Of a DNA stretch of 64,000 nucleotides, positions 7,944 to 40,502 are shown piece by piece (position 1 is the stretch's first letter; each line of letters begins with the position of its first letter). Both the position numbers and the translations under genes were made by a program. The DNA is from Acidobacteriota bacterium (GTDB taxonomy: Bacteria > Acidobacteriota > UBA890 > WLXD01), in assembly GCA_965248695.1 (NCBI GenBank), contig CBDFKD010000002.1:5013201-5077200 (forward strand). The letters are read 5' to 3'. The notes beneath the pieces are model-generated. The model was given only the letters and a program-made list of their open reading frames with translations. It did no database searches and had not been told where the DNA came from.

Positions 7944-8044
7944 CGTTGATCTCCTTTCACCGGGGCAAAAGACCTGTATCCCGTGGGCTAGGGGGCTGCC
8001 GATTCACTCGACAAGAGCGTCAACGAACTCACGACTCCCGGCTA

Positions 8045-8317
8045 GTGGCCTGTAACAGGGAATTCGATAGTGCCGTGGTGGCGAGATGGGGTCGAATGCA
8101 AGGCGCTCCGACGAGTCGATGTTGGTGCATCTTGGAGGAGGAGCAACGCCGCAGGCGGCCCGATCTCGCCGCCATCCTGCGGACAGATGGGCAGTTGCGG
8201 GCGATATCGGCGTTGCGACTCGTCGACGATGCCCGACGGCATCGCCATCCTCGCCGCGCCTCGATCTCGCCCGCAAATCCCATCTGCGGCACTATCGAAT
8301 TCCCTGTTACAGACCAC
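8045..8317. mobile_element. MITE-like non-autonomous element with 34-bp terminal inverted repeats and TA target duplication
   Basis: TIR GTGGCCTGTAACAGGGAATTCGATAGTGCCG at 8045-8075. Its reverse complement sits at 8285-8317 with 1 mismatch. TA at 8043-8044 and again at 8318-8319. The interior is also palindromic, so both strands encode RHYRIPCYRPL. No transposase. Confidence 0.5.
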
Positions 8318-9240
8318 TAGAAATCTCTCGCATGGACCAAACGGGTATCCATATCCGCTGGCGCGTCCAGGCCGAAGGCTCGCGCGACCGTTGCTGCCGT
8401 GACGGTAACGGCCAGCGAGCCGAGCTTACCGCGCGCGATTCCATCACCCCAGAGAATCCAAGGGACCCTGTTGTTCGAACTGCCCCTACGATCGTGAGAT
8501 CGGCCCTCGCCGCCGTGATCGGCGGTAACGATGACGATAGAGGGACCCGGTAGCGCCCCACTCTCTAGCACGGCAATCAGGCCGCCGAGCAACGCGTCCA
8601 CTCCGCGCAGCGCCAGCGTCTGTTTCTGATGCCCCCACCCGAACTCGTGTCCTGCTCGATCGACGTCCGGCAAGTGCACGAGCATCAGGTTCGGCTGTTC
8701 TTGTATCAGGTACTCGCGCGCCTCTCGGGCAACGATCGCGGCCGGGACATCCCGGACCTCCATTCGATCGATCGCCGGCGACAAGGCGATGTGCAGCAGC
8801 TTGGTCTTGCCGGCGAAGAATGCTGTCTTCAGCCCGGCCTCGTGGGCGACGTCGAAGACCGTTGCCGCCTCGACCAACCCCCGATCCGCCTCGTAGGCGT
8901 TCCACGTTACTCGGTGGATCGGAGGCTCGACGCCCGTCACGATCGAGGTGATCGCCGGCAGTGTAACGCTCGGCTGCACCGTTCGAGCGTCGAGCGTTGC
9001 AGCGCCCTCGCTGATCAGCCGGCTGAGCGTGGGCGCATGTTCCTTGGAGATCAGGTCGGACCGCAACCCATCCAGAATCACGATGATGACGTGACCGTCG
9101 GACCCGATCGGCGCCAGCTGGTAGGGACGCCCTGGCCGCTCGTTCACCGTGGAGCAGGCCACGAGCGTGGCGACGATCGGTGTCGCTGCGGCGAGGCTGA
9201 CGAGGAACCTGAATCGCCGCCGGGAAAAGGCAGGCGTCAT
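8317..9240 (-). CDS. Nucleotide pyrophosphatase/phosphodiesterase (alkaline-phosphatase superfamily) lipoprotein
   Basis: 307 aa. Signal and lipobox (LVACS). VIIVILDGLRSD and TADHGG motifs typical of type I phosphodiesterase/NPP. Confidence 0.65.
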   Translation of the reverse strand: MTPAFSRRRFRFLVSLAAATPIVATLVACSTVNERPGRPYQLAPIGSDGHVIIVILDGLRSDLISKEHAPTLSRLISEGAATLDARTVQPSVTLPAITSIVTGVEPPIHRVTWNAYEADRGLVEAATVFDVAHEAGLKTAFFAGKTKLLHIALSPAIDRMEVRDVPAAIVAREAREYLIQEQPNLMLVHLPDVDRAGHEFGWGHQKQTLALRGVDALLGGLIAVLESGALPGPSIVIVTADHGGEGRSHDRRGSSNNRVPWILWGDGIARGKLGSLAVTVTAATVARAFGLDAPADMDTRLVHARDF

Positions 9241-9396
9241 GTGCCTCTTCTGATAGACGGCTCGGGGTGGCCCAGTCGACTGCCGGGTTCCATTGCGTTT
9301 CCGAGAAGGGGAGCGAACATAGACATACGAAGCCTACCGCGCGATCGTGGGAGGCTCCAAGGGAGCGACAGAGGAGACCCGCATCGGGCGCGCTTG

Positions 9397-10467
9397 CTAG
9401 AAGATTACGGAGCCTTGGCCACGCTCGTCGATCATCTTCTGGATATGCGCTACGAGCAGCTCTCGTCGTTCCAGGAGCGCGCCCATCTGTTCCGAAACGA
9501 GGTAAGCGTCGATCGCCGCGCGGATCTGGTCGTCGGTCACCTGCTGTAGCAGCTCCCACATGCGCGGACTGCACCAGACGATCTCATCGCCGTAGCGCAG
9601 GTCCTTGTGCACCTGGAATGCGCGTGAGTGATCGATCATCCAAAGTGCCCATTCAGTGTCGATAAGGTAGTTGCCGCGGTTCCGGTCGTCGTTGAAGATC
9701 AAGCTGTCGAATATGCGCATCGCCTGGATCTGGCGCTGCCAGTCGGCCGTCACGGGTGGAGGTCCCGCCGCTCCTTGGCCGGCCTCGCCGAGCGTGCGCT
9801 CTATCCAGAGCTGCACGCTTCCATCGATGCCGTTGACCCTGCGGCACACGGTGGGCGGTACGTTGTCGAGCTCGAACAAGCGCGCCATCTGATAGGCGGC
9901 GCACTGGCCCTTGTAGCTATCGTAGTAGCGGCTGAAGCTGCGGCCGTTCATGCGGCGGGCCCGCGAGACTCTGTCGATCTCGTGAAACGCGCCGTGCGCT
10001 CGAACACCGTCACGCTCGAGTACCAGGCGCTTGATCCCAGTGACGCCGATACCGACGTTCTCCGATGACACGACAAGGGCCGTACGCAGGAACTCCGTCG
10101 CCTCGTCGTAGGTCCGAAAGGGTAGCGGCGTACCATTCGGCCCCGGCCACGGGCGGGCAATCTCTGCATCGTCCTGAGATCGATGCACCCAGGCGAGCGT
10201 GCTCGTAGTGAGCGCCGGCGATAGCACCAGAGCCACGGCGGTGGCCGCGAGCAGAACACTCCGGGCCGCCTTCACGCGGCGCGCGGTCGGATGGGTTCTC
10301 TCTTGAGCGCTGATGCCGGGCTCCACGGCGCTATCACAGAGGGGTGGGCGAAGCGCCTGAAGCCTATCGCCAGAGCCGGCGAGATCCAACGGAGACGGCA
10401 GGGTAGACACGACCGGCCTTCGCCGGGGAATACCTGCCCTACTTGTGCTTCTCGCGTCGCTCCCCAT
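9397..10467 (-). CDS. Secreted protein with a PI3/PI4-kinase (type II PI4K-like) catalytic-loop motif
   Basis: Motif IFDSLIFNDDRNRGNYLID resembles the PI4KII loop DYIIRNTDRGNDNWLI. The likely true start is the GTG near 10275, giving the signal-like VKAARSVLLAATAVALVL. The N-terminal extension is uncertain. Confidence 0.4.
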   Translation of the reverse strand: MGSDARSTSRAGIPRRRPVVSTLPSPLDLAGSGDRLQALRPPLCDSAVEPGISAQERTHPTARRVKAARSVLLAATAVALVLSPALTTSTLAWVHRSQDDAEIARPWPGPNGTPLPFRTYDEATEFLRTALVVSSENVGIGVTGIKRLVLERDGVRAHGAFHEIDRVSRARRMNGRSFSRYYDSYKGQCAAYQMARLFELDNVPPTVCRRVNGIDGSVQLWIERTLGEAGQGAAGPPPVTADWQRQIQAMRIFDSLIFNDDRNRGNYLIDTEWALWMIDHSRAFQVHKDLRYGDEIVWCSPRMWELLQQVTDDQIRAAIDAYLVSEQMGALLERRELLVAHIQKMIDERGQGSVIF

Positions 10468-14357: not shown

Positions 14358-14589
14358 GGGTCCTCCGGATTCTCTGACGCCGTTGCTGCGCGGACCGTCG
14401 GTTCTCGAGTCCCTAGCGATTCCTCTCGTGTCCAAACTCTACCGTTCCGGAGCCTAACGCCCAGTTGGGCTGAGTGCCACGATCGTAGGAGGTGCGCTCG
14501 TTGGCGGGGGTTCCTTGAGTGGAAGCGGCCATGACGGCAACGTCGTGATCGCGATAGGCTCCGACGCCATGATCGCCATACGAACCGAT

Positions 14590-21031: not shown

Positions 21032-21085
21032 CTACGGGTCCGTCGGCACGAGTCGCTGCAGCTCCTCGAACCAGTTGGTGATGGC
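21032..21085 (-). repeat. E-element copy 1: conserved ~50-nt element that would encode AITNWFEELQRLVPTDP, in frame after the oxidase TGA
   Basis: Shares ttcgaggagctgcagcgactcgtgccgacggacccgtag with the copies at 30.73 kb and 34.6 kb. Confidence 0.5.
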
Positions 21086-22284: not shown

Positions 22285-23385
22285 TCAGCGCGCCTGCACG
22301 TTCAGCGGCCGGAAAGGTACGTATCTCACCAGGCGCTGCCGGTTGATTTCCCCCGCGTAGATGTTGCCGGCGAAGTCCACGCCAAGGAACTCGAGCCCCG
22401 GCCCGATGTCTGCGTCGTGTTGGGGAACGAAGTGCAGGACCCAAGCCTGCTCCTCTTTCAGGTCGCCGATCCGGATCCCCTTCTCCCACCCGAAGTTGCT
22501 CCGCCAGGTGTCCGGAGGGCCGGTTCTTGGCGTGCCCGAAAGGCCGTCGGCGGCGTAGAGGATATCGTTGCGGTCAATGAAGAGCCCGCTCGGCTTGCCG
22601 TATTGGGTCCAGATGTAGAGGGGCTTGCCGACTGGGTCGAAGACCTGGATCCGGCTGTTGCCGCGGTCGGCGACGTAGACGCGACCGCGGGAGTCGAGCT
22701 TGACGTCGTGGGGGTCGCTGAACCGACCCGGCTCCCTGCTCTCCGAACCGACGCCACCGCCCACTTCGAGAAGGAAGGTGCCGTCACGCGAGAACTTGAC
22801 GAGCCGGTTGTTTCCGCCCCGGTGCCCATCAGTGACCCAGATGTCCCCGTTTCTGGCGATCGCGACGCCGGACGGCCCGTTGAAATGGTGCGGACCGTTT
22901 CCCCAGACCCCGGCTTCGCCGAGCCGCATCACAACCCCTCCTCGCTGGTCGAGCTTCACGACCTGATGACCCAGCCCGAGGCTCTCACCAAGCTTCGCCC
23001 GGGCATCCCCGTGTGAGCCGCCCTCGGTCACCCAGAGAAAGCCCTCGTGATCCAGGTAGAAGCCGTGAGGGAAGCCGAAGATCCCTGCGCCGAAGCTCTC
23101 CACCAGGTTGCCGTCGAGGTCGAACTTGAGGATCGGATCCAAGTCGCTCCCGGCGCACTGATTCCCGCCACACCGGTCGAGCATCCACAGGTGCTGGCCG
23201 TCGGGGTCGGGGAAGGCTCCGCTCATGATCCCCAGCGTTCTTCCTTCGGGGAGTTTCTCCCAATCGAGCGTGACGCGGTACGGATTGATCGTGGAAGTTT
23301 GGGCGTACAGCCACCCGCCCAGCGTCACTGCCAACGCGCTCGAGACGGCCGCAACCGCCGCGCCTATCCGACGGGCATGCCGCAT
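22285..23385 (-). CDS. NHL-repeat (peptidylglycine amidating-lyase-like beta-propeller) secreted protein
   Basis: Signal peptide. Repeated VADRGNSRIQVFD-type NHL motifs. Confidence 0.7.
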   Translation of the reverse strand: MRHARRIGAAVAAVSSALAVTLGGWLYAQTSTINPYRVTLDWEKLPEGRTLGIMSGAFPDPDGQHLWMLDRCGGNQCAGSDLDPILKFDLDGNLVESFGAGIFGFPHGFYLDHEGFLWVTEGGSHGDARAKLGESLGLGHQVVKLDQRGGVVMRLGEAGVWGNGPHHFNGPSGVAIARNGDIWVTDGHRGGNNRLVKFSRDGTFLLEVGGGVGSESREPGRFSDPHDVKLDSRGRVYVADRGNSRIQVFDPVGKPLYIWTQYGKPSGLFIDRNDILYAADGLSGTPRTGPPDTWRSNFGWEKGIRIGDLKEEQAWVLHFVPQHDADIGPGLEFLGVDFAGNIYAGEINRQRLVRYVPFRPLNVQAR

Positions 23386-23490
23386 GCGATCGGGCCTGTT
23401 TTGGTGCCGGGTTCCATGGCCTTATCAAGGAGGCATAGGTGACCGGCTGAGCCTAGCGATGGAGCAAGCGAGGGTCCAGGGTTCGGTTGC

Positions 23491-28259: not shown

Positions 28260-28304
28260 CGCGAACCAGCGGACCTCAACTCTTCCCCAAACCCGCGGAC
28301 CGGA

Positions 28305-28721
28305 TCAGATCCAACGCTTGCTTTCGGTCCGCTTCGAATACCAGATCATGAACGCTGCCACTACCGACGACATTAGAGTCCCGACCCAGACCTCGATTGG
28401 AACGTCGGCTGCGCCGAGGAAGGGGAACATCTGCACAACGACGCCAAGTAGCGACGCGATGAACAGGTAGTACGCAGCCGACTTCCTGAGCAGAAGCAGG
28501 AGGCAGCCAAGCGCGCCGCCGAAGACGCCGAGCGCAAAAGCTCCGGTAGCCCATACGGGCCGGCTTTCGATGATCGCCCGGTACGACTCGGACGTGGAAG
28601 CGAGCACGTCCGCATCCATCTGCGAGAAGAAGTTCATGATGCCCAACACATTCCAGATCAGCGCCACAGCGCCGATCGCCCAGAAACTCCACGGAACACT
28701 TCCAGCCGACTTGTCGCTCAT
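28305..28721 (-). CDS. Small integral membrane protein (hypothetical)
   Basis: Four predicted TM helices. ATG at 28721 (MSDKSAGSVPW...). Confidence 0.4.
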   Translation of the reverse strand: MSDKSAGSVPWSFWAIGAVALIWNVLGIMNFFSQMDADVLASTSESYRAIIESRPVWATGAFALGVFGGALGCLLLLLRKSAAYYLFIASLLGVVVQMFPFLGAADVPIEVWVGTLMSSVVAAFMIWYSKRTESKRWI

Positions 28722-28772
28722 CGCATCCCCCGAGTCCCTGCTGTCTATCGCCCGGTAACGGGCGAGCGCCGC

Positions 28773-28804
28773 AAGCGTATCGTCAGCGCCGCCGAGTTCC
28801 AACG
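28773..28804. repeat. R-core repeat copy a (aagcgtatcgtcagcgccgccgagttccaacg)
   Basis: 30/32 identical to the copies at 30569, 33115 and 40345. Lies 50-80 bp upstream of the minus-strand gene 28305..28721. Confidence 0.6.
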
Positions 28805-28968
28805 AGTCATTGCCAACTCACAAGCGCTCACGTATTTTGCCGCAGTCGCTCGGCTAGTGCCCGGCTGCTGCCTCGATCTGGCAGCGCGATGGCGTGGCGG
28901 CAGATCGTGGGCTGGTACCTACACGAGGACATGGAGCGGCTTCGACCTGTTGGCGCCATGGCCAGCGC

Positions 28969-29619
28969 CTAATCGGATGCGATCAAGCTCATCGCGAGGC
29001 CGCCGTTCGCGTCTGCCCGCACCTGCACCTCGCGCTGGAGGATGCGGTCACCCGCAACTCCCCACGCTGTTAGCAGGTACGACTGCTTCGGGATGTCCTC
29101 GACGCGAAAGCTCCCCTGATCATTAGCGATCGCCGCATATGGGTGCGAGACCACGAGGATGAGCGCCATCATCCCCGGGTGCATGTCGCAGCTGACGCTA
29201 TAGGGGCCGTTCTGCTCGAACCGGTGCTCGATCTCGTCGTCTTGCCTCAGGTCAACGTTGATGACCACGGCCTGTGTCTGCGCCTGTGTCACGCGCACGT
29301 TGTGCTCGGTGTCGTCGCCGTTGCCGAACCGCACCTGCTGACCTCTCGCGGCGATCGCCATCCGCGGAGCGAAGGTGCGGCCGAACTGCTCGATCGCGAT
29401 CGCCGTTGCCGGTGCCTCGCGTTCCGGTGCAACCGACGCTGCCTCTGCGAGAGGCTCCAACGACACGACCGCCGGGCCGAGCCCATCGGGGAGCGTCGCG
29501 AGCAGCGTTGCCGCCGCCGCGTCGGGATCAGCCGAGCTGTCGGGCTCGGGAGCGGCCGATCGCGAGCCGCCGGGAGCACACGACACCAGCACGAGCGTGA
29601 TGACCGTCGACCCCACCAT
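28969..29619 (-). CDS. Cupredoxin (blue-copper) domain lipoprotein
   Basis: Lipobox LVSCA. Cu-ligand pattern H..C..H..M (HNV...SCDMHPGMM). Confidence 0.5.
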   Translation of the reverse strand: MVGSTVITLVLVSCAPGGSRSAAPEPDSSADPDAAAATLLATLPDGLGPAVVSLEPLAEAASVAPEREAPATAIAIEQFGRTFAPRMAIAARGQQVRFGNGDDTEHNVRVTQAQTQAVVINVDLRQDDEIEHRFEQNGPYSVSCDMHPGMMALILVVSHPYAAIANDQGSFRVEDIPKQSYLLTAWGVAGDRILQREVQVRADANGGLAMSLIASD

Positions 29620-29699
29620 CGGTCGCCGTTCCCGGGGGGCACGTCGCGAGTTCATGCCGCGAAGTCTAACGAACTGTCGGTCCTCCAGTCAGCGGGCAC

Positions 29700-29800
29700 G
29701 GCGGTGATGAAGCTACCGAGCTCCGATGCTAGTAGCCCCAATGGCGAAGATGTTGAACACCACGCAGAGTTCGTGGCGCGGCTCGCGAAGGCGGGGTAGG
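29700..29800. repeat. Repeat copy d: diverged tRNA-Glu 3'-end/trailer-like segment (tagtagccccaatggcgaagatgttgaacacc)
   Basis: Homologous to 33190-33219 and to the 3' end plus trailer of tRNA-Glu at 38487. Same orientation as both. Confidence 0.5.
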
Positions 29801-29843
29801 CGCTACTGACGTTCGCGCGACCCCAGGCGTTGCATGTTGCGGT

Positions 29844-30431
29844 TCAGCGAGCCGGTCGCAACATCGGCACGAACGGTGGTGACGTTCCCACTTGGACCTC
29901 GCCGAGCACCTCGAAGCCGTGGCGCTGATAGAGGGAGACGTTTCTCGGGTTCGTCGATTCCAGATATGCCGGCGTCTGATCATGGTCGCATTGCTGCGCG
30001 GCATACTTCATGAGCGCGCCCCCGATCCCCTTTCCCCGATACGCCGGGTCAACCCCGATGAGCGGCAGATACCAGTGCGGCTCGGCAGGGTGGTATCCAG
30101 CCAGCTGCTCGAACACTGCGTAGAGGTCGGTGCGGACCGACTCCGAGACGGTACTCTCAATGACCTCGCCCAGAGCTTCCTCATCAGGGTGCACATCGGG
30201 CGGCAGCCAGAGGGCGGTGCCGGCGCATTCCCCGGTGCAGTGGGCACTACCGTGGGCGAAGGAGCTGCCGGCAAACGCACGCGCGAACCGAGGCATGTTC
30301 GTCAGATACTGATGCGGATCCGGATAGCACCATCTCGCCACCGGATCGGCGACGAACGCCAGTACGATCGCATCGATTGCCGGACTCTCGTCGGCCTGAG
30401 TCGTCGTTCTGATCTCAGGGATCTCCATGGC
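29844..30431 (-). CDS. GNAT family N-acetyltransferase
   Basis: Acetyl-CoA-binding motif RGKGIGGALM. Conserved YLESTNPRNVSLYQRHGF tail. Confidence 0.7.
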   Translation of the reverse strand, partial: AMEIPEIRTTTQADESPAIDAIVLAFVADPVARWCYPDPHQYLTNMPRFARAFAGSSFAHGSAHCTGECAGTALWLPPDVHPDEEALGEVIESTVSESVRTDLYAVFEQLAGYHPAEPHWYLPLIGVDPAYRGKGIGGALMKYAAQQCDHDQTPAYLESTNPRNVSLYQRHGFEVLGEVQVGTSPPFVPMLRPAR

Positions 30432-30560
30432 TTCCTCCGGAGGCTGATCTGGTTCCCGTGTCCGCGATCGCGCGGATCGCGCTCCAGCTTGTCTAGTGGT
30501 CTCTCGCACTGACTGGCGCGAACAACGCAGCCGTGAAAGACCTACGAAGCAGGACGATGG

Positions 30561-30795
30561 GCGCCCAGAAGCGTATCGTCAGCGCCGGCGAGATCCAACG
30601 CCAGGTGTAGAGAGGCTATCGGGCGGCAGTTGAATTGAGGTAGTAGGCCCAATCACCCCGAGTTGGAACCGGATCTAGGAAGAGCTCCGAGGGCTGGATC
30701 GGCTACTTGCCTGATTCGGAGGGCTGAGCGCGTTACGGGGCCGTTGGCACGAGCCGCTTCACCTCCTCGAACCGGGTGGTGACGAGCGTCACGCA
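30561..30795. repeat. Composite repeat copy b: R-core, tRNA-3'-like segment, spacer and E-element copy 2
   Basis: R-core at 30569-30600. tagtaggcccaatcaccccgagttggaacc at 30641-30670. The 110-nt stretch 30680-30795 is about 75% identical to 34536-34640 and includes the FEEVKRLVPTAP-encoding core. Confidence 0.55.
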
Positions 30796-30899
30796 ATGGC
30801 TACTGGCCCGCATCTGCGCGCGGCTTTCGCACTCCTTCAGTTCCTAATACTCGAAGGACTTGCCGAGGAGTCGCGGGCCTGACTTCTACTGTCCAGGCA

Positions 30900-31010
30900 T
30901 AGACGGGCCGAGCCACACGAACCGGTACTCCCACGAGCAGCGAGAGCAGCTACGTATCTCCGACGACGGTGTGCTGGGTCCGCTTGAACCGATTCGCTTG
31001 TCTTACCGTA
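30900..31010 (-). pseudogene. Duplicated 5' fragment of the 7101..7943 methyltransferase gene, with an in-frame stop
   Basis: ~90 nt near-identical to 7860-7945. Would encode RQANRFKRTQHTVVGDT*, versus MRQANRFKRTNHAVVGDTHLL in the intact gene. It supplies the last codons of the oxidase paralogue. Confidence 0.6.
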
Positions 31011-33003
31011 TCTCGCTCGTACTGGAGGCTCTTCGCCGGGCGCGGCTTCGAACAAGCAGCTGCTCCCGCACCGCTCGATGTGCCTCGTCGATAGCCGAGT
31101 CGGTGTGTGTCGAGGCAGCGGCATCGGAGTTGGCGATGGAAATCCGACCGAATCGCCGGCTCCCGACTACGCACGGCCGATCGTCGGGTGTGAACAGCGC
31201 CCACTCGATGGGATCGTCCAGGGTGTTGTAGCTGTATGCATAGCCGTGCGGCCAGCGATTCACCGTGATCGCTTCGATGTCGCGAGCCGGGTCGAAGCCC
31301 CCACCCTCCAGCATTCGACCGAGCTGGTCGCGGATGTTGCGCTCGAATGTCTCGAAGCTCGTGGCCAACAGATTCTCTCGCCCGATGCGGTGCTGCTGCT
31401 TCTTCGGGTGTCCAGGAGCGCAGGGCGTTCTGGACATGTGCAGAATCATCGGGTCCTCGGGTGACCTGGAGGGTTGGTACTCACCGAACTGCACGGAGCG
31501 GCCAAGGCTGACCCCGCTGTGGTACATCCCCGGCGCGGTCACCCGTGAGACTCCGAGGTTCTTGAAGGCCTTCCAATCTCGGGTAAGGACGTTGGTGGAG
31601 ACGAGCGGCATCTTGACACCATACTTGAGCGCCACCTTCTGCTCGTCGGACATCTCTGGGCACAGGTGTGGGATGACCCCGTTCCAGCAGCCCATCACAC
31701 AGTGACGCGCCCGTACCTTCTCGGCCTTGCCAGCGCGTAGATAGGTAATCTCGACTTCGCGGGCCACATCGGGATCGCCCAGGTGCCGGACGGAGACGCC
31801 CATGCTGTTGAGGCGAATCCTGGCGTCGGAACCCTCGCGGTCTAGGCGGTCGTACCTGAGTCGCGACGTCATCGAGTCGTCCAGCGAGGTGCCGGGAAGC
31901 GCGTCGGGAATCATGGCGCGAACCAGCAACCGTGCCAGCGTCGCGTTGCCGTCTGGAAAGTGGATGTCCGGTCGATCGTCCCACTCGTTCTCGCGACCGT
32001 GTTGCCCGCCGCCGATGTGGGCAAGGGGGCCCACCAGGGGAAGGGTCTCGAGGTTCATCCCCTGGAAGCCGGGATAGCCCTGGGCCCATGCGTAGAGTGC
32101 CGGATGGGCGTCGATGCCAACGCAGAAGCTACCCTTCGGGCGGTCATCGAAGAACGGGATCACATCCGAGTGAACCTTGGCCAGATCGAGCAGAAAGTCC
32201 CGGTAGCTGATGCGTGCCAGGCGCTCCTTCTTGTCCGCATCCGACAGTCCGGGCATGGTGTCCGGGTTCGCATCGTCGTCGTAGAGCCGCGCGATGTCCC
32301 TCTGCGCCTCCGGAGACATCGGGGTCTTTGCGAGCCACTCGGCCCATGCACCCGATTGCCCGCCGCGTCCCATCACCAGCCGATCCTCGCCGAACACCTC
32401 CTTGCTGAAGAACGTGGCGTTGCCCAGGCCCAGCGATCCGTAGAACCTCCTACCCGCGGCGCTGGTGGCATAGGCGCTGTCGATGTCGATGCCGACCGCA
32501 GCGAGAAGCGTCCTGCAGACGGCGCTGTAGTGGCCCACAGACTCGAGGTACGACGTACCGCCGGGCAGCATCAGCGTACGGCCTCGATAGGTCATCTCGT
32601 TGCGCTTGGCATGGCCGCCAAAGTCGTCGTGATTGTCGAGGACAAGGACACGCGCACCGCGGCCAGCCGAGGTCAGGAAGAAATAGGCTGCCGAAAGCCC
32701 GCTCAGCCCCCCACCGACCACCACGCAATCGTAGCGCTCACCGGTATCGGCGGCATCGGTCCAAGAGTTGCCGTCGCGAAGCGCATGGCCGGCCTCGAAG
32801 GAACCGGGGTGGCTGCCGCGCATTCCGGTCAGGGCCGGGGGGTAGTAGTCCTGCGCGAGTGGCGCATAGGGCTTGCCCTCGCGTGCCGACGACCAGCCCG
32901 GTGCGATGAGCGCCCCCCCGATCGCAACCCCCACGCCGTTAACGAAGTCGCGCCGGGTGATATCACGGTGCATCCCTAGATCACGATCCTCACTTGTGGG
33001 CAT
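31003..33003 (-). CDS. FAD-dependent oxidoreductase, Tat-exported (paralogue 2)
   Basis: MPTSEDRDLGMHRDITRRDFV Tat signal and a GGGLSG FAD motif. Paralogue of 12429..14357. Its C-terminus is altered by fusion with the methyltransferase fragment. Confidence 0.7.
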   Translation of the reverse strand: MPTSEDRDLGMHRDITRRDFVNGVGVAIGGALIAPGWSSAREGKPYAPLAQDYYPPALTGMRGSHPGSFEAGHALRDGNSWTDAADTGERYDCVVVGGGLSGLSAAYFFLTSAGRGARVLVLDNHDDFGGHAKRNEMTYRGRTLMLPGGTSYLESVGHYSAVCRTLLAAVGIDIDSAYATSAAGRRFYGSLGLGNATFFSKEVFGEDRLVMGRGGQSGAWAEWLAKTPMSPEAQRDIARLYDDDANPDTMPGLSDADKKERLARISYRDFLLDLAKVHSDVIPFFDDRPKGSFCVGIDAHPALYAWAQGYPGFQGMNLETLPLVGPLAHIGGGQHGRENEWDDRPDIHFPDGNATLARLLVRAMIPDALPGTSLDDSMTSRLRYDRLDREGSDARIRLNSMGVSVRHLGDPDVAREVEITYLRAGKAEKVRARHCVMGCWNGVIPHLCPEMSDEQKVALKYGVKMPLVSTNVLTRDWKAFKNLGVSRVTAPGMYHSGVSLGRSVQFGEYQPSRSPEDPMILHMSRTPCAPGHPKKQQHRIGRENLLATSFETFERNIRDQLGRMLEGGGFDPARDIEAITVNRWPHGYAYSYNTLDDPIEWALFTPDDRPCVVGSRRFGRISIANSDAAASTHTDSAIDEAHRAVREQLLVRSRARRRASSTSEIR

Positions 33004-33114
33004 AGCCTAGCCGCTCCAGGTTCTCAAACGCGGGAAGCGTGCGAAACGTCGACTCGTTACCAGGCTCGACCGAAGTGCAAATCGCATCCAGACTCTGACG
33101 TCGGCGAGCAAGGG

Positions 33115-33219
33115 AAGCGTATCGTCAGAGCTTGCGAGATCCAACGGAGGGAGTAGGAAGAGGCTGCGGGCAACGGCGAAACGGAGGTGGTAGCCCCAAC
33201 GGCCAGGATGTTGAACCAC
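33115..33219. repeat. Repeat copy c: R-core plus a diverged copy of the tRNA-Glu 3' end and trailer
   Basis: aagcgtatcgtcagagcttgcgagatccaacg followed by ...caacggcgaaacggaggtggtagccccaacggccaggatgttgaacc. Compare the tRNA region ...caacggcgaaatagagggagtagccccaacgggatttgaacc. Confidence 0.6.
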
Positions 33220-33408
33220 ATATCCAGTACGTAGCGCGCCCCACCCGCTTGTCGAGGATCTCGGTCAGGATGTCGCGATAATCGATCGTGATCTCTAGAT
33301 CCCTGCACCGTCCGCATGAAAGGCTGTACCGGCCAGCGAGGCGCGTCATCTCGACCCGTCGCGGCCGTCAAGCGGAGCGGCCTGCCTGTCCATTGTAGGC
33401 TGTGTCTG

Positions 33409-33837
33409 ATGCAGATCCACCGGGAGACGCTGGAGCGCGAGACCGCGCCCGATACCGACATTCATGACCTCACCGACGAGGTGCGGGCCGTCATCGAGCG
33501 CTCGCGTGTGAAGCAAGGCCAAGTGCTCGTCTTCACGCCAGGCTCGACCGCCGGCGTCACCGTCATCGAGTACGAGAGCGGCGCCGTGGCCGATCTAAGG
33601 CGGGCGATCGACCGGCTGGCGCCCACCGGCGAGCCCTACGATCACGACGCCCGCTGGGGCGACGGCAACGGTTACTCGCACGTGCGCGCCGCGCTGCTCG
33701 GCCCCTCGATCACCGCGCCGATCGTCGACGGTAGGGCGGTTCTAGGCACCTGGCAGCAGATAATTCTGTGCGATTTTGACAACCGGCCGCGAACCCGGAA
33801 AATCGTCGTGCAGGTGATGGGCGTCGTGGTTCCGTAG
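33409..33837 (+). CDS. YjbQ/UPF0047 family protein (secondary thiamine-phosphate synthase-like)
   Basis: Conserved HTSAG-like, GNGYSHVRAALLGPS and LGTWQQI motifs. Confidence 0.6.
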   Translation: MQIHRETLERETAPDTDIHDLTDEVRAVIERSRVKQGQVLVFTPGSTAGVTVIEYESGAVADLRRAIDRLAPTGEPYDHDARWGDGNGYSHVRAALLGPSITAPIVDGRAVLGTWQQIILCDFDNRPRTRKIVVQVMGVVVP

Positions 33838-34045
33838 CCTTGCCGGCCGCTTAGTCAACCCCCTCTCTCACCACCCGCCCGCAAAGCTAAAGCTAACGAA
33901 CGAGCTGGGCGGGCGGAGGTAGTCGATTCAGCAGGGTAGGTGTAATTGCGCGGCAGTCCGTTGTTCGGGATGACGCCGGATGGCATCACCTAAGCCGCTG
34001 TGTTCCATGCCTTGTCATTGGTTGCCCGGGTAATCTCCAGGAATT

Positions 34046-34441
34046 TCAGCTTTCGGCATCGTCCGGGAGAGCGTATCCACCCGATTCGTCGTTAACTTCG
34101 TCGCCAACCAGCGGCGGGTTGAAAATAGCAATGGCGCGCACTTCGGTATCCAGGTTGTAGCGGTGACGCTCATGTTTGTCGAAAGCATAGAAGACTCCCG
34201 GCTCCAGTCTATAAACGTCCCCGGTCTCGATGATCTCGACAGTGCCGGTTCCCTCGAGAACGTAAACGGCCTCGATGTGGTTCTTGTGCTCGACCTCGAG
34301 GTCGATGCCTGCCGAGCCGACGGCCTCGGTTACGGTGAAGCCCAAGTTGTCGGACGCGACCGCCAGGCGGGCGCTCACGAAACCATCCGCTTCGACGAAA
34401 TTCGGCGTCCCCTTCAATTGTGCAAATGTACGAAGAATCAT
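34046..34441 (-). CDS. ectC: L-ectoine synthase
   Basis: 131 aa. MILRTFAQLKGT N-terminus, HKNHIEAVYVLEGTG cupin core and FNPPLVGDE. No ectA or ectB nearby. Confidence 0.75.
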   Translation of the reverse strand: MILRTFAQLKGTPNFVEADGFVSARLAVASDNLGFTVTEAVGSAGIDLEVEHKNHIEAVYVLEGTGTVEIIETGDVYRLEPGVFYAFDKHERHRYNLDTEVRAIAIFNPPLVGDEVNDESGGYALPDDAES

Positions 34442-34535
34442 CCTGAGGTTCCCTTTGCTGGTTTGATATTCGTAGCTGGCACTATCGCTGGCGAAGTCTT
34501 CCGGCAGCACGTTGATCGAGACATCACGATCGAGA

Positions 34536-34640
34536 GTGGAACTCCGGGGGCTGCATCGGCTGCTTGCATGATTCGGTGAGGCCGGCTGAGCGCGCTACTT
34601 GTCTGTCGGCGCGAGCCGGTTCAGCTCGTCGAAGAAGTTA
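34536..34640. repeat. E-element copy 3 plus extension, abutting the stop codon of the NHL gene
   Basis: Would encode DWFSRTNFFDELNRLAPTDK* in the +1 frame relative to the NHL stop TAA. The extension is homologous to 30680-30730. Confidence 0.5.
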
Positions 34641-35765
34641 GTTCGTGAGAACCAATCCTCGGCCGACGAGCTTTATGGGATCGGCTCCGGGCTTCGGAAC
34701 GAACTTGCTCAACCATCCGCCGTCCCAGCTGGCGACATAGACGTTGCCGTCCTGGTCCACGTCCATCTGGTGTGGACGCCCGAGGCCACCAGGAAAGCCG
34801 CCCCGCGTCCCGCCGAACGCACCCCAGTGGTACTGGAGGACCCCGTCCAGGTTGTACCTGAGGATCCGGTTCACTGCCGCAGAAATCACCCAGACCGCGT
34901 CATTCTCGTCGATGAAGATTCCGACGGGATCGGTGACGTCGGGCCACTCCTCGATGAACTCGCCGTCTTCCGTAAAGACTTGGATGCGGTTATTGGTCCG
35001 GTCGCCGACGTAGATGCGGTGATCGCGGTCCACGGCAACGCCGTGGATGAGGTCGAACTGTCCGGGGCCGCTCCCGACCGAGCCGAACTCCGACACGAGC
35101 TCGCCGGCCGCGTTGTACCTGGCGATACGACCGTTCTGGTAACCGTCCCCGAGCAGAAAGTCGCCGTCCGGGAGGAAGGTCATCACCGAGGCCTGGCCGA
35201 AGTCGAGCGGTCCCGGGTTCTTGTTCGCCCGTGCCTTCTCCCCGCTCTGGCGCGGGTTGGGGTCGAGGAGCCGCATCACGATCTGTTTGCCGTCGTTGGT
35301 GAACTTGATGACCTGCTCGTGGATGTCCCTGGTTCCTCCGCCGCGCTCGACGAGCCAGATGTGGCGCTCCGGGTCGTAGGGGCTGATGTAGACCTGGTGG
35401 GGAGTGTTGAGCATGGTGTCCCACTGGGTCCAACGCTCGACGATGTCCCCGTTCCCATCGACGACCACCATGTAGTTGGAGCTGTTCGGCCGCTCTTCGC
35501 CTTCGGCGTTCCGGTCGCCCCACACTGCAACGATAATCCGGTTCGGATTGTCAGCCGCCACACCAGAGACCTGACCCCAGGTCCACTCCTCGTCGTGGTC
35601 TGGCGCCGGCTTCCACCAGCCTGCCACCGGATCGTATCCTCCGGTACGGTCGTCCCCGCCCTTGATGACCGCCTCCGGTGCGGCCTGGTCCTCACCAGCG
35701 CAGGCTGGGAGTAGCGCCAGCCCAACGGCGAGGAAGAGGGCCACGTCCATGCGCTTTAGTTTCAT
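34638..35765 (-). CDS. NHL-repeat lipoprotein (paralogue of 22285..23385)
   Basis: MKLKRMDVALFLAVGLALLPACAGE signal and lipobox. VGDRTNNRIQVF NHL repeats. Confidence 0.65.
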   Translation of the reverse strand: MKLKRMDVALFLAVGLALLPACAGEDQAAPEAVIKGGDDRTGGYDPVAGWWKPAPDHDEEWTWGQVSGVAADNPNRIIVAVWGDRNAEGEERPNSSNYMVVVDGNGDIVERWTQWDTMLNTPHQVYISPYDPERHIWLVERGGGTRDIHEQVIKFTNDGKQIVMRLLDPNPRQSGEKARANKNPGPLDFGQASVMTFLPDGDFLLGDGYQNGRIARYNAAGELVSEFGSVGSGPGQFDLIHGVAVDRDHRIYVGDRTNNRIQVFTEDGEFIEEWPDVTDPVGIFIDENDAVWVISAAVNRILRYNLDGVLQYHWGAFGGTRGGFPGGLGRPHQMDVDQDGNVYVASWDGGWLSKFVPKPGADPIKLVGRGLVLTN

Positions 35766-35809
35766 CGTCAAATCCACTCCCGAAAAGGCTTTCATAGACG
35801 CCGTGGAGT

Positions 35810-36790
35810 TGACCCGCTTCCGTGGACACCTTATGGCTAACGCCAAAGGAGTCTGCGATGCGAAGAACACGACCGCCTTATCCGCCGGAGTTTCGCCGGC
35901 AGATCGTCGAGCTAGCGCGGGCAGGACGCAGCGTGCAGGAGCTCGCCGAGGAGTTCGAGCCCTCGTACTGGACGATCCGTACATGGATCAAGCAGGCGGA
36001 TCGAGATGACGGGCTTAGCGCGGCTGGCCTGAGTAGCCAGGACAAGGAAGAACTACGGCGGCTACGCCGGGAAAACCGCCAGTTGAAGACGGAGCGGGAG
36101 ATCCTGGCAAAAGCCGCGGCCTGGTTCGCTCGGGAGACCGGCGCAGTACCCAAGAAGTCTTCGGGTTCGTGAGAGCTCACCAGGCCTGCTATCCGATCGC
36201 CACGATGTGCCGAGTGCTGGAGGTCTCCACCAGCGGCTACTACGCGTGGCGACAACGCCCTAGCAGTATGCGAGCACGACAGGATGCACAGCTGCGTGAG
36301 CAGATCGAGACGATCCATCGACTTAGCCGTGCGACCTATGGCGTGCCTCGGGTACACGCGGAACTGGCCGCCGACGGCGTTCGGGTGGGGCGCAAACGCG
36401 TGGCACGGCTGATGAGCCAGGCGGGGCTGGAGGGTGTCAGCCGCCGCCGTCGGCTGCGCACGACGCGCCGCGGTACTGACGCGCAGCCGGTGCCCGATCT
36501 GGTGAAACGTGACTTCGCGGTCGGTGCACCCGATCGCCTGTGGGTTGCCGACATCACGTACGTCTCTACGTGGTCGGGGTTCTTGTACCTGGCGGTGGTG
36601 ATGGATGCCTTCAGCCGGCGGGTGGTGGGCTGGTCGATGGCCAACCACCTGCGTACCGAACTGGTGCTTGAGGCGCTCAACATGGCGATCTGGCAACGCC
36701 GACCTGAGAGCGTGATCCACCACTCTGATCAGGGCACGCAATACACCTCGATCGCCTTCGGCCACCGCTGCAAGCAGCTCGGTGTACGTC
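35810..36790 (+). mobile_element. IS3-family insertion sequence, 3'-truncated (IS#1)
   Basis: OrfA (HTH, leucine zipper) and OrfB (DDE integrase core, 209 aa, lacking its C-terminus) in a -1 overlap. The candidate IRL TGACCCGCTTCC begins near 35810. The right end is replaced by IS#2. Confidence 0.55.
35858..36172 (+). CDS. IS3-family transposase OrfA
   Basis: MRRTRPPYPPEFRRQIVELARAG...ENRQLKTEREILAKAAAWFA. Confidence 0.8.
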   Translation: MRRTRPPYPPEFRRQIVELARAGRSVQELAEEFEPSYWTIRTWIKQADRDDGLSAAGLSSQDKEELRRLRRENRQLKTEREILAKAAAWFARETGAVPKKSSGS

Positions 36791-36798
36791 TGACCTGA
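36169..36798 (+). CDS. IS3-family transposase OrfB (truncated)
   Basis: DDE domain motifs LWVADITYV and HSDQGTQYTS. It ends early where IS#2 is inserted. Confidence 0.75.
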   Translation: MRAHQACYPIATMCRVLEVSTSGYYAWRQRPSSMRARQDAQLREQIETIHRLSRATYGVPRVHAELAADGVRVGRKRVARLMSQAGLEGVSRRRRLRTTRRGTDAQPVPDLVKRDFAVGAPDRLWVADITYVSTWSGFLYLAVVMDAFSRRVVGWSMANHLRTELVLEALNMAIWQRRPESVIHHSDQGTQYTSIAFGHRCKQLGVRLT

Positions 36799-36856
36799 CC
36801 CCCGAAAACGGATCCGGATGTAATCTCACGATCTGGGTCAAGAACGGGAGGTCAGA

Positions 36857-37135
36857 ATGCCGAGTAAGAGGCACAGCGCCGAGCAGATCGTACGCAAGCT
36901 CCGGGAGGCTGAGGTGGAGCTGGCTCGAGGGGCGACGGTCAAGGATGCCTGCCGCAAGCTAGCAATCACCGAGCACACCTACTACCGGTGGCGGCGAGAG
37001 TACGGCGGACTGAAGCTCAACCAGGCCAGAAAGCTCAAGCAACTGGAGAAGGAGAATGCCCGGCTCAAGAGGCTGGTGGCGGAAAAGGAACTCGACCTGT
37101 CGATCCTGAAGGAAGTGGCGGAGGGAAACTTCTGA
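36857..37135 (+). CDS. IS3-family transposase OrfA
   Basis: MPSKRHSAEQIVRKLREAEV...ENARLKRLVAEKELDLSILKE. Confidence 0.8.
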   Translation: MPSKRHSAEQIVRKLREAEVELARGATVKDACRKLAITEHTYYRWRREYGGLKLNQARKLKQLEKENARLKRLVAEKELDLSILKEVAEGNF

Positions 37136-38016
37136 GCCCAGCTCGGCGGCGAGAGGCGGTGGCACATGTACGGGGGCGGCTGGGCGTCTCGGAGAGGCGG
37201 GCGTGTCGGGTACTGAAACAACCACGCACGACACACCGGTACGTGCCAAGAGAGCCGCAACAGGAGCAGATTTTGACGGAGCGGATCGTGGATTTAGCCC
37301 GACAGTACGGGCGCTACGGATATCGGAGGGTGACAGCGTTGCTGCGCATGGAGGGCTGGTCCGTGAACCACAAACGAGTGCAGCGTATCTGGCGGCGCGA
37401 AGGGCTGAAAGTACCGAGAAAACAGCCCAAACGAGCACGGCTGTGGCTGAGCGATGGCTCCTGCATCCGGCTGCGCCCACAGCACCGGGATCATGTCTGG
37501 GCGTATGACTTCCTGCACCACCGGACGCACGACGGTCGGGCTATGAGGCTGCTGACGATCGTCGATGAGTACACACGAGAAAGCCTGGCGATCCATGTAG
37601 CACGGAAGCTCAACTCTGAGGACGTGCTGGAGCAGCTCGGGAGGTTGTTCGTACACCGGGGCATACCTGAGCACATCCGGTCGGATAACGGACCAGAGTT
37701 CACCGCCGAGGCGGTTCGCGACTGGCTGGGCCGGTTGGGCGTGGGGACGCTGTTCATCGAGCCGGGCTCGCCGTGGGAGAACGGTTACGTGGAGAGCTTC
37801 AACGGCAAGCTACGCGACGAGCTGCTGGATGGAGAGATCTTCTACACGCTCAAGGAGGCAAAGGTTCTGATCGAGAGATGGCGTCAGCACTACAACCGCA
37901 TGCGACCGCACAGCTCGCTGAGCTATCGGCCGCCCGCACCCGAAGCGACGTTGTTGAAGCCGGCTGCGCTCCGCTTCGCCGGCCTCAACAACCTCTTGTC
38001 AGCACCGAGTTACTGA
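37132..38016 (+). CDS. IS3-family transposase OrfB (via -1 frameshift from OrfA)
   Basis: DDE motifs VWAYDFLH, IRSDNGPEFT and PWENGYVESFNGKLRDE. This frame is open from 36988. Confidence 0.75.
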   Translation: MSPARRREAVAHVRGRLGVSERRACRVLKQPRTTHRYVPREPQQEQILTERIVDLARQYGRYGYRRVTALLRMEGWSVNHKRVQRIWRREGLKVPRKQPKRARLWLSDGSCIRLRPQHRDHVWAYDFLHHRTHDGRAMRLLTIVDEYTRESLAIHVARKLNSEDVLEQLGRLFVHRGIPEHIRSDNGPEFTAEAVRDWLGRLGVGTLFIEPGSPWENGYVESFNGKLRDELLDGEIFYTLKEAKVLIERWRQHYNRMRPHSSLSYRPPAPEATLLKPAALRFAGLNNLLSAPSY

Positions 38017-38400
38017 GATAAGACATGGTACTAACCGCGGGGTCAGGTCAAGGGCGGGACGGGAGACGCGGACACGCGCACACTTCGGGAGCGACAGGGC
38101 TAGCCGGGACATTCGTTCTCTCTTGGCTTTGTGCCAGGGCTAGCCCACATCCTTGGCGGACGACCGAGGTCACCTGGTTAGCAGCTCTAGGGGCGCTTGA
38201 CCAAGAAAGCTTCGGTGCGGCGGATAGCCGCAAAGTAGCCGATCCTCAGAACACCCGTCGGAGGGCGCATAGTGTAGTTGATTGCCGGGCGGGGGATGAG
38301 CGAGCGAAGGGCGGTTTCGGCATACCCAGTGGGGTCGAGGATCTTGTCGCAGCTGTGTCGAGTTCCGGGTTCGATGGCACTGCCGGGCGGAGGTGGAAAT

Positions 38401-38486
38401 GCGCCCGAGATCCATCGCCAGCGGAGGCGAGATCCAGCCGGTGGGGCAGGGGATGCACCGGAGGACAACGGCGAAATAGAGGGAGT
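38401..38486. repeat. Repeat copy f: partial R-core plus trailer immediately 3' of tRNA-Glu
   Basis: gcgcccgagatcca / ggcgagatccagccgg, then the trailer caacggcgaaatagagggag that is shared with copy c. Confidence 0.5.
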
Positions 38487-38560
38487 AGCCCCAACGGGAT
38501 TTGAACCCGTGCCGCCGGCTTGAAAGGCCGGTGTCCTAACCTGGCTAGACGATGGGGCCA
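38487..38560 (-). tRNA. tRNA-Glu (anticodon UUC)
   Basis: Reverse complement GGCCCCATCGTCTAGCCAGGTTAGGACACCGGCCTTTCAAGCCGGCGGCACGGGTTCAAATCCCGTTGGGGCTA. Cloverleaf with anticodon loop CTTTCAA. CCA not encoded. Confidence 0.8.
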
Positions 38561-38606
38561 CCCTGGAAAACCGCTGTGGCGAGGCCGGGTCACTAGGTAG
38601 AAGTGT

Positions 38607-38679
38607 GGGCCGTCAGGGGATCGAACCCTGGACACCCGGCTTAAAAGGCCGGTGCTCTGCCAACTGAGCTAACGGCCCG
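38607..38679 (-). tRNA. tRNA-Lys (anticodon UUU)
   Basis: Reverse complement GGGCCGTTAGCTCAGTTGGCAGAGCACCGGCCTTTTAAGCCGGGTGTCCAGGGTTCGATCCCCTGACGGCCCA. Anticodon loop CTTTTAA. Confidence 0.85.
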
Positions 38680-38717
38680 GACGGAGTATAAACCGGGTCG
38701 TAGGGTGGCATGCTCGT

Positions 38718-40313
38718 CTATTGCACGATCACGATTGCGTCGTTCGACGCAATCGCATCGCCGCAGCTGTTGCGGGCGATGATCCGAACGTAGTACGTGC
38801 CCGGACCGACCCCCGTCGCCATGAAACTGGTGTTCGGGCTGCTGAGATCTCGACCTGGAATGAGGTCGGATGCGCCGTCTCCTGACCCCGCCTGCAAGAT
38901 GTAGGTGGTGGGCGCGTTGGCACCGCCCTGGCTGCTCCATGTCAGGGTCACGGTTGTTCCGCTGACGCCGGAGGAAACTGTCACCGCGCTCGGCGGGCCG
39001 GTACACGATCCTCCTGCTGGCCCTCCGACATCCAATTCCACCTCATTCGATGGGCCGCTCGTGTCCACGAGATTGGTGGCATGAACACGTAGGAAGTAGG
39101 TTCGACTCCCGACGTTGTGGGTGACCAAGCTCGTCACATTGCCGACTCTCGAGATGACGATGTCACTGCCACCGGACGACGATCCGACGTGCAAAATGTA
39201 CTCGGTTGGAGCGCCACCCGAGCCCGGTGGGCTCCATGAGATCGTTACGGTCGAGCCGTCTGCGGACGCCGTCAGATTCGACGGAGCGCCTGGAGCGCTT
39301 TCTTCACCGCCACCGGTACCGTTCCCCGATCGGTAGTTCGCCACGATCCCGGCAGTCTCCTCGATGACGCGAGCGTTGTTAGAGATGCCTCCAACGCCTA
39401 TCGGGCCCGCCTCCGGCCCGCTGTAGGAAATGTTCGGATTCGAGAAGACAAGGAGCTCCAAGCACACCCGACGGAACCGGTCCACGCACTGGTCCACATA
39501 CGACATGACCGTTTGCCACGACTTGTTTGCCGACGGCCCGATGTGGACATGCCCGTGTCCGTCGCTGGAGTAGGCGCTGCCCTGCACGTACGGGTCGTGC
39601 CCCGGTCCCCATGTTGTGGCCGATCTCGTGAGCGAACGTATAGTTGGACACGCAAAAGAATGACGTCACGCTGAACGCCCATTCCGGGAACCCTGGCGAG
39701 ACCCAAGCGACCCCGCAGAAGTCGATTCCGTAGGTGAGCATGGCGACGAGGTCTGCCGCGTACCGTTCCCTGAGGGCGCCGACCGACTCCGACTTCCTGA
39801 GCCATGACAAGTCGTTGCTCATGGAGGACGATTCCGTGTAGGCGATCTCCTGCGTGTTGGCCAGGGTCAACCGAGCTCCTGAGCCACTGTTGCTGAAGGC
39901 GCCGTTCGTCTGCGCAACCCCCAGAAACGCCAGATTCTGAATGGCTGTCGTCCCACCGGCGCGCTGGCGCGCCTGCGGCGTGTACAGCACGAGGATCCTG
40001 ATGTCGCCGGCGCCATCCTTGGTCGTGGGGGTCGAGGTCTTTGTCTCCGGCTTCGCTGTGTCGCTCGGACGAGCGGGGAGGTGCTCCGGCGGAAGCAGCG
40101 CGCGGTCAATCTCCAGAACCCGATGGGTGCCGGCCCGTCCGGGTCTGACGCTGAAGGCCCGTTGACCGTCGCTGATCTCTGCTGTCAGCACTCCTTGGTG
40201 AACGACGAGGATGGCCTCCTGGTACGGTCGCCCTGGCTGGCAGAAACGAGCAGCAGCGCGAGCGTGATGGTCGGCACCGTTGTAGGGGACCGAAGTAGAT
40301 TGCCCAGGTCCAT
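38718..40313 (-). pseudogene. Secreted zinc metalloprotease (HEIGHNMG zincin, reprolysin/M12B-like) with two C-terminal FN3-like domains, broken by two frameshifts
   Basis: Signal peptide MDLGNLLRSPTTVPTITLALLLVSASQG in one frame. The catalytic domain with TFAHEIGHNMG is in a second frame, with the shift near 40226. FN3 repeats are in a third frame, with the shift near 39600 (atggggAccgggg). RBS GGGAG precedes the ATG at 40313. Confidence 0.6.
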
Positions 40314-40344
40314 GACGCTCCCTGAGGCCAGGTAGTTGACAACT

Positions 40345-40377
40345 GAAGCGTAGCGCCGGAGCAGTTCAGATCCAACG
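40345..40377. repeat. R-core repeat copy e
   Basis: gaagcgtagcgccggagcagttcagatccaacgg, lying ~35 bp upstream of the metalloprotease start. Confidence 0.5.
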
Positions 40378-40502
40378 GCAGGAGCGAGGCGAGAGCGCAG
40401 TGCGGACTGCGGAAGATGCGCCGGTGAACGTCGGCGTTTGCAACCAGTGTTCTACCCTGGGCGCCCGAACAGTGGATCAGGTCGCGGCGAAAGGAGACAT
40501 TC

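Follow-up and report, generated by a model that had tools for sequence, protein, structure and literature searches.

A repeated two-box element in an Acidobacteriota genome derives from the conserved 5' region of a family of serine/threonine kinase genes

Results

R copies in the 64-kb window

A stretch of 64,000 nucleotides (nt) from an Acidobacteriota bacterium (GenBank assembly GCA_965248695.1, contig CBDFKD010000002.1, positions 5,013,201 to 5,077,200; hereafter the window) carries a short repeated element, termed R, on its minus strand. The original prediction had suggested that the core of R may be a promoter/operator shared by at least four genes, encoding a membrane protein, a GNAT protein, an oxidase paralogue and a metalloprotease. 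The present analysis assigns R to a conserved module of ~ 80 nt, of which it forms the upstream half and whose native place is ahead of a family of serine/threonine (Ser/Thr) kinase paralogues with Pkinase and PD40 domains.

A 32-nt R-core string was matched on the minus strand at 30569-30600 without mismatch, at 28773-28804 and 33115-33146 with two mismatches each, and at 10360-10391 with three. Against these four matches in the window none was obtained in 100 dinucleotide-preserving shuffles, and the repeat is real, as had been proposed. A shorter probe, together with a repeat finder, added further diverged copies at 40346-40377 and 38401-38458, and profile searches brought the total to eight clear copies, all on the minus strand and all between 9.2 and 40.4 kb of the window. 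A search of the window with nhmmer likewise returned eight R matches at E<=1.6e-6, every one on the minus strand. Each of the four copies named at the outset was confirmed; the list was incomplete, however, and lacked those at 9261-9357, 10311-10392, 23388-23478 and 38341-38436 as well as the degenerate box pair P1 at 14449-14481. The copies, with the open reading frames (ORFs) and other features next to them, are as follows.

R1, 9261..9357, minus strand: diverged copy (CTTGGAGCC...GGTAGGCTTC) with leader and kinase stub ATGGAACCCGGCAGTCGACTGGGCC (MEPGSRLGH...); nhmmer E=6.5e-9; the ATG of a phosphodiesterase gene (9240) lies 90 nt downstream
R2, 10311..10392, minus strand: best-preserved copy, with core, leader and GTGGAGCCCGGC; E=3e-19
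P1, 14449..14481, minus strand: degenerate box pair CGTGGCAC - 13 nt - GCGTTAGGCTCC; the start of oxidase paralogue 1 lies ~ 95 nt downstream
R3, 23388..23478, minus strand: variant-B copy (CTGGACCCT...CGCTAGGCT) with leader and stub ATGGAACCCGGCACCAAAACAGGCCC; E=3e-13; upstream of an NHL-repeat gene (22285-23385)
R4, 28756..28804, minus strand: core CGTTGGAACTCGGCGGCGCTGACGATACGCTT; a small ORF of membrane type (28276-28692) begins with its ATG 51 nt downstream
R5, 30552..30600, minus strand: exact core, leader lost; upstream of a GNAT gene (29844-30509) and a cupredoxin-like gene (28969-29655)
R6, 33083..33147, minus strand: core with two mismatches; the ATG of the flavin adenine dinucleotide (FAD) oxidase paralogue 2 (31003-33003) lies 111 nt downstream
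R7, 38341..38436, minus strand: decayed copy with decayed kinase stub, -10-like box TGGATC; E=8e-10; 48 nt after tRNA-Glu (38485-38559), with an IS3 transposase next, on the opposite strand
R8, 40283..40378, minus strand: diverged copy with boxes kept, spacer GAACTG and stub ATGGACCTGGGCAATCTACTT..CCCCTAC; E=5e-10; the start of a reprolysin-like ORF (40191) lies 154 nt downstream

None of the window copies is followed by an intact kinase; each is a kinase 5' stub. Between 8 and 12 kinase codons are still recognisable in R1, R3 and R8, and little past the core is retained in R4, R5 and R6. At R6 the oxidase's own 5' region begins ~ 15-20 nt past the core, which marks the junction; a supposed kinase stub after R6 (GAGCCTGG) was rejected, being part of this oxidase 5' region and common to paralogue 1. 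The start codon of the R2 module is in frame with an ORF of 308 amino acids (9397-10323) of unknown family and without a Pfam match. The string TTGGAT-17-TA(C/G)GCT was found in seven window copies, and in the copy at 40346-40377, which differs from the family consensus at 7 of 31 positions, TTGGAT-17 nt-TACGCT is still readable. The eight copies, and P1 as a ninth, are thus all remnants of kinase 5' ends, truncated and left by rearrangements ahead of unrelated genes.

R is part of a kinase-family module

The distribution of R beyond the window was determined by two scans. In the genome scan, which used a degenerate core pattern and one genome per species, 37 exact pattern matches were found at 34 loci, all in four Acidobacteriota metagenome-assembled genomes. 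The metagenome scan, for which the pattern was taken from the downstream part of the module (box 2 and leader) and box 1 was left free, returned 12 further loci with real copies together with four chance matches in coding DNA. A scan of viral contigs for R gave no matches. The host group is a narrow clade of uncultured Acidobacteriota, and the R module is lineage-specific.

The module consists, in order, of box 1, GT(T)GGAYCT; a variable spacer of ~ 6-8 nt; box 2, C.CYGRCGATA(G/C)GCTTCA; a leader of ~ 30 nt; and ATGGAACCCGGCACC, encoding MEPGT. Box 1 occurs as GTTGGATCT and as GTGGACCCT, and the registers of variants A and B are offset by 1 nt. The 5' edge is sharp, conservation starting at the junction CC/GTTGGATCT (CC/GTTGGA), and the preceding 80-100 nt are unrelated among the aligned copies. 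In 31 of 52 copies the core is followed, after 28-38 nt (mode 32), by a ATGGAACCCGGCAC-like start, and most of these copies continue with ATGGAACCCGGCACCAAACTAGGCCCCTACGAGATC...GGTGCAGGCGGCATGGGCGAGGTGTAC, encoding MEPGTKLGPYEI..LGAGGMGEVY. Because this start and the codons for a kinase N terminus follow the core, R is recognised as the upstream half of the conserved 5' region of the kinase family, of which a full-length example (L014:4666-7344) contains Pkinase and then PD40 beta-propeller repeats.

The remaining copies break off at scattered 3' breakpoints, from 0 to ~ +130 nt after the core, with no preferred site and with unrelated sequence beyond. Copies that combine the sharp 5' edge with an early break are kinase 5' stubs ahead of unrelated genes. 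At L007:3238-3319, as at R2, the module runs in frame into a non-kinase ORF, and at L046 and at position 2933 of L005 box 2, the leader and the ATG are retained without box 1.

These data alter the original prediction in two respects. The conserved unit was put at 30 nt, and it was found to comprise ~ 64 nt of noncoding and 15 nt of coding DNA; and the element is not confined to the four genes named, its native place being at the 5' end of a large family of Ser/Thr kinase paralogues. The idea of a shared regulatory module that had spread with the element was partly right. A spread together with regulatory context was supported; the main correction is that the module is a property of the kinase family, of which the window copies are truncated derivatives.

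Placement and conservation of R

The distance from the core end to the next minus-strand start was 51 nt for the membrane protein, 60 nt (GTG) or 140 nt (ATG) for GNAT, 111 nt for the oxidase and 154 nt for the metalloprotease. This is close to the range of 35-130 bp given earlier. R was co-directional with the next gene in 43 cases and convergent in 11, and ran off the locus end in three, as against 50/50 for random intergenic points, a count that rests on crude gene calls; it upholds the proposal of a cis-module lying upstream of, and facing, gene starts. A hand count further gave a co-directional ORF of at least 100 amino acids, starting within 260 nt, for ~ 27 of the 36 non-kinase copies.

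R was carried by 21 kinases with an intergenic upstream region, and was absent from four operon-internal kinases, whose start overlaps the preceding stop and whose N terminus reads MIGKTLGHYEI, not MEPGT. Presence on intergenic-headed kinases together with absence from operon-internal ones is the distribution expected of a transcription/translation start module. As a separate observation, a second kinase subfamily (MIGKTLGHYEI), translationally coupled to the upstream kinase by a TGATGA overlap and without R, was seen at L004:3119-5695, at L014:7344-8000 and at L002 (~ 7200).

Pairwise comparison among 15 kinase paralogues gave an identity of 0.74 for the core and 0.71 for the leader, compared with 0.475 for the 80 nt upstream. 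At third codon positions the corresponding values were 0.67 for codons 1-25 and 0.44 for later codons. Since core and leader identity exceeds third-position identity, the noncoding block is conserved beyond silent sites, a point in favour of the original reading.

Within the module it is the boxes that persist. Box 1 was retained in 10 of the 11 real distinct metagenome copies although it had been left unconstrained by the pattern, while the spacer varied. P1 and R6, which belong to oxidase paralogues 1 and 2, respectively, agree at 16 of the 20 box positions and at 3 of the 13 spacer positions (Fisher p=0.003), and the box pair lies ~ 95-110 nt upstream of both paralogue starts. The sequence TA(G/C)GCT is intact in 8/8 gene-facing window copies and was lost only in R7, which faces an insertion sequence (IS); TAnnnT is kept in all gene-facing window copies.

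A predicted promoter

The best-supported mechanism, which we regard as fairly probable on the sequence evidence, is that the R box pair serves as the promoter of a transcription/translation start module. In favour of such a module are the excess of noncoding over synonymous-site identity, the two kept boxes with their variable spacer, the lack of R at operon-internal kinases and the orientation of copies towards downstream genes. Box 1 would be recognised as the -35-like and box 2 as the -10-like element of a sigma-70-family promoter, possibly with a dedicated sigma factor or an included operator. Transcription would start a few nt past TA(G/C)GCT, and the leader and first codons would form the translation-initiation region. 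Stub copies would be positioned to give the downstream genes a promoter and, at R2, a start codon as well. As part of this explanation we infer that the R-headed genes may be co-regulated by one factor.

Several observations weigh against this assignment. The string originally read as a -35/-10 pair, TTGGAT-17 nt-TACGCT, is present, but its hexamers match the Escherichia coli consensus TTGACA/TATAAT at only 3/6 + 3/6 positions, and a scan for the sigma-70 consensus called no R copy. Within the window the box pair was not found upstream of other genes, and therefore it does not represent a general promoter type; box 2 (~ 16 nt) and the leader are also conserved well past the needs of a -10 element. 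The family conservation profile is partly circular, as the genome-scan pattern fixed the boxes, and another possible source of high noncoding identity is gene conversion between paralogues. No RNA structure was supported for R by RNAalifold, by covariation measured against shuffles or by fold z-scores. In Rfam searches only two tRNAs in the window reached the gathering score, and two loci with canonical copies gave no match at E<=1.

The alternative of a dedicated sigma factor, or of an operator that overlaps box 2, has the same likelihood as the housekeeping sigma factor. Two further promoter classes were considered by eye and rejected. For the extracytoplasmic function type (GGAAC-N16-17-CGT) the spacing does not fit, the distance from GGAWC to CGAT being 13 nt, and for a sigma-54 promoter (GG-N10-GC) the -12 position would land in the variable hexamer. 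Upstream of tRNA genes, no housekeeping promoter consensus usable for comparison was obtained.

Other features of the region

Additional gene fragments accompany the R copies in the window. R1 and the 3' tails were located by tblastn at a high E-value, a noisy procedure that was useful for these features only.

30642..30672, minus strand: tRNA-Glu-like T-arm and acceptor 3' fragment, preceding R5
33189..33219, minus strand: tRNA-Glu-like T-arm and acceptor 3' fragment, preceding R6
21035..21082, minus strand: kinase/PD40 3' tail stub, ITNWFEELQRLVPTDP followed by a stop, intergenic, after a DAO gene
30734-30782, 5786-5829 and 34596-34644, minus strand: further C-terminal tail stubs (NWFEELxRLVPTxP followed by a stop), intergenic

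The tail stubs and R stubs together bracket blocks of unrelated co-directional genes. The tRNA-Glu-like fragments are diverged, and each lies ~ 45-50 nt upstream of an R copy. The same composite is found in L031 (~ 2498-2530) and L003 (~ 5190-5220), where no tRNA-Glu gene is adjacent, and this recurrence indicates that the unit 'tRNA fragment - spacer - R' was itself duplicated.

A segmental duplication of ~ 80-87% identity relates 12429-14435 to 31003-33003, each encoding a FAD oxidoreductase with a twin-arginine translocation (Tat) signal. A 5' fragment of a methyltransferase gene (7858-7946 vs 30921-31009) belongs to the same duplication, the second copy being without the genes that separate the two parts in the first. 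At 8030-8330, between the methyltransferase and phosphodiesterase genes, there is a near-perfect hairpin of ~ 290 nt; its terminal inverted repeats are long (CTAGTGGCCTGTAACAGGGAATTCGATAGTGCCG...), its minimum free energy (MFE) is -181 kcal/mol, with z=-14, and it looks like a miniature inverted-repeat transposable element (MITE). The IS3-family transposase at 36169-38016 (plus strand) comprises two ORFs, the first with HTH_21 and rve and the second with rve/rve_3, presumably joined by programmed frameshift, and is inserted immediately downstream of the decayed R7 and its kinase stub beside tRNA-Glu. Downstream of R8 on the minus strand, an ORF with an fn3 domain (38718-39587) and the reprolysin-like metalloprotease ORF (39379-40191) overlap by ~ 200 nt in different frames and are probably one frameshifted gene, either a pseudogene or a sequencing error.

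Outside the window, the R copies at L032:7165-7260 and L033:5600-5701 are broken 7-9 nt past the core by a common sequence, GGTACTGTCAAGTTAA..., that resembles the end of an IS. Another common insertion occurs at the glycine-loop codons in L018:5449-5560 and L033:2650-2764. It may be that insertions often target the 5' regions of kinase genes.

Alternative explanations

It could be that the R copies are inert, decaying 5' remnants of kinase paralogues disrupted in a rearrangement-prone region, with no present function for their neighbours, and that the apparent conservation stems from recent duplication or gene conversion among the paralogues. The scattered 3' breakpoints without a favoured site are of this kind, as are the visible decay of R7 and R8, the weak match to promoter consensus and the plasticity of a region that holds an IS3 element, a MITE-like hairpin, a segmental duplication and 3' tail stubs. 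Note, however, that the boxes persist while spacer, leader and stub decay, and that the sole window copy with a broken -10-like box, R7, is the one without a gene downstream. Non-kinase copies are moreover biased towards co-directional gene starts, and noncoding identity exceeds that at synonymous sites. Taken with these points, we consider pure debris unlikely.

A role mainly at the RNA level appears distinctly improbable. The block would in that case be a hairpin in the 5' untranslated region (UUCAGGCGCUC / GAGCGCC-AUGGAA) that hides the start codon for translational control, with the promoter further upstream. This pairing is possible in 86% of cells, and MFE folds of canonical copies contain the start-codon hairpin. 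The first five kinase codons travel with the R block, and the copies at L046 and at position 2933 of L005 that lack box 1 keep the parts such an element would need, box 2, leader and ATG. For the leader hairpin and the AUG-sequestering helices, however, there was no covariation, the observed values being no better than those of shuffles; RNAalifold on the R alignment gave three pairs only, and folding z-scores of R copies ranged from -1.2 to 0. The abrupt start of conservation at box 1, with nothing conserved upstream, would also be odd if the promoter lay there, and R4-R6 retain the core without the leader. A core-flanking stem (CGCCGG/CnGGCG) had been seen in six window copies, R6 and R8 seeming to carry compensatory changes, and was rejected when it vanished on alignment of > 40 relatives.

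A speculative extension, to which we give little weight, concerns both ends of the kinase genes. The 5' module (R plus the MEPGT codons) and the 3' tail (NWFEELxRLVPT followed by a stop) could act as portable homology arms, and kinase genes as expression slots that need no recombinase. Three brackets in the window with the layout 5' stub/genes/3' stub fit such slots (R3 to 21035, R6 to 30734 and R1/R2 to 5786). If this were so, foreign genes replacing the kinase body would inherit promoter and leader and join a kinase-type regulon, and slot-plus-cargo units could move between paralogous sites or genomes by homologous recombination.

That R is instead a recombination or mobility site marking cassette boundaries (attC-like, a tRNA-Glu island att site, or the end of a MITE or IS) is the most doubtful proposal. 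The layout of the window is array-like, with same-strand R copies and one to five genes between them; on inspection GTTGGAT agrees with the attC core GTTRRRY; R7 comes directly after tRNA-Glu, and tRNA-Glu 3' fragments precede R5 and R6. On the other hand, R copies are not alike, as fresh att duplications would be, the composite of tRNA fragment and R also occurs at loci without a tRNA, viral contigs hold no R matches, and the majority of R copies simply precede kinase genes. The attC, att-site and MITE readings fail because no hairpin or inverted-repeat partner was found for R, because R has no fixed 3' boundary, and because Pfam scans of 28 window ORFs, a part of those present, detected no Phage_integrase and only IS3-type rve. 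An integron cassette array was rejected for want of the R''-L''...L'-R' hairpin, of significant folding and of an integrase among the 28 ORFs scanned. A tRNA-island att site was likewise rejected, the fragments being diverged from tRNA-Glu, with no integrase between them among the ORFs scanned and the composite recurring without an adjacent tRNA-Glu in L031 and L003. A MITE or a repetitive extragenic palindromic (REP) type of repeat was discarded, R being one-ended, with scattered 3' breakpoints, no palindrome and a strongly biased orientation.

Discussion

To our knowledge, promoters and regulons have hardly been characterised in the Acidobacteriota, a phylum whose members are mostly uncultured. 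As a sharp two-box motif ahead of dozens of sensor kinases, R is a candidate for a lineage-specific promoter/operator and for the mark of a kinase regulon, and its truncated copies ahead of secreted and membrane enzymes suggest how new genes may enter such a regulon. R also marks true start codons, in the window the GTG at 10326-10328 for the ORF of 308 amino acids rather than the longer ORF starting at 10467.

An expansion of Ser/Thr kinase paralogues has been described in the Acidobacteria member Candidatus Solibacter usitatus (PMC3174227), so that this organism and the R hosts share a large kinase paralogue family as well as a phylum; a term search of that article gave no instance of 'upstream' or 'promoter'.

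Like sigma-70 promoters, R has two boxes ~ 17 nt apart, a variable spacer, a kept TAnnnT and a fixed position before the start codon, and it is absent from operon-internal genes. It differs from them in matching the E. coli consensus at 6 of 12 positions, in the ~ 16 nt over which box 2 is conserved and in being family-restricted within the window. These differences suggest a dedicated sigma factor or an operator rather than the housekeeping type.

With attC arrays R shares same-orientation repeats between short gene units and a GTTRRRY-like heptamer. Unlike attC it has no inverted-repeat hairpin, no integrase was found among the ORFs scanned, and its native position is at the 5' end of a gene, a constant distance ahead of the ATG, while its 3' edge varies. 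Correia elements of Neisseria, REP sequences and bacterial interspersed mosaic elements (BIMEs), and MITEs are short multi-copy intergenic sequences able to influence the expression of neighbours. R is likewise short, multi-copy and intergenic, but it lacks terminal inverted repeats, a palindrome, a target duplication and a defined length, and it is one-ended and derives from a single gene family.

The closest known analogue is the upstream homology box (UHB) of the ospE/ospF/elp (erp) genes of Borrelia burgdorferi (Marconi et al. 1996, J Bacteriol 178:5615, as cited by PMC10016077). UHB is said to comprise the promoter, the ribosome-binding region and the first codons, and its promoter/operator function has reportedly been demonstrated by experiment. 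Both UHB and R are conserved 5' blocks of paralogous loci that also stand ahead of unrelated coding sequences, and both have probably spread by recombination. They have no sequence relation and belong to different phyla; R heads chromosomal membrane Ser/Thr kinases, whereas the hosts of UHB are prophage-plasmid lipoproteins, and the promoter role of R is a prediction from sequence. In R, conserved noncoding DNA and first codons were found in common between paralogues and unrelated downstream genes, and by analogy R can be classed as UHB-type: an upstream box that is specific to one lineage, belongs to a family of paralogues and has been reused by other genes.

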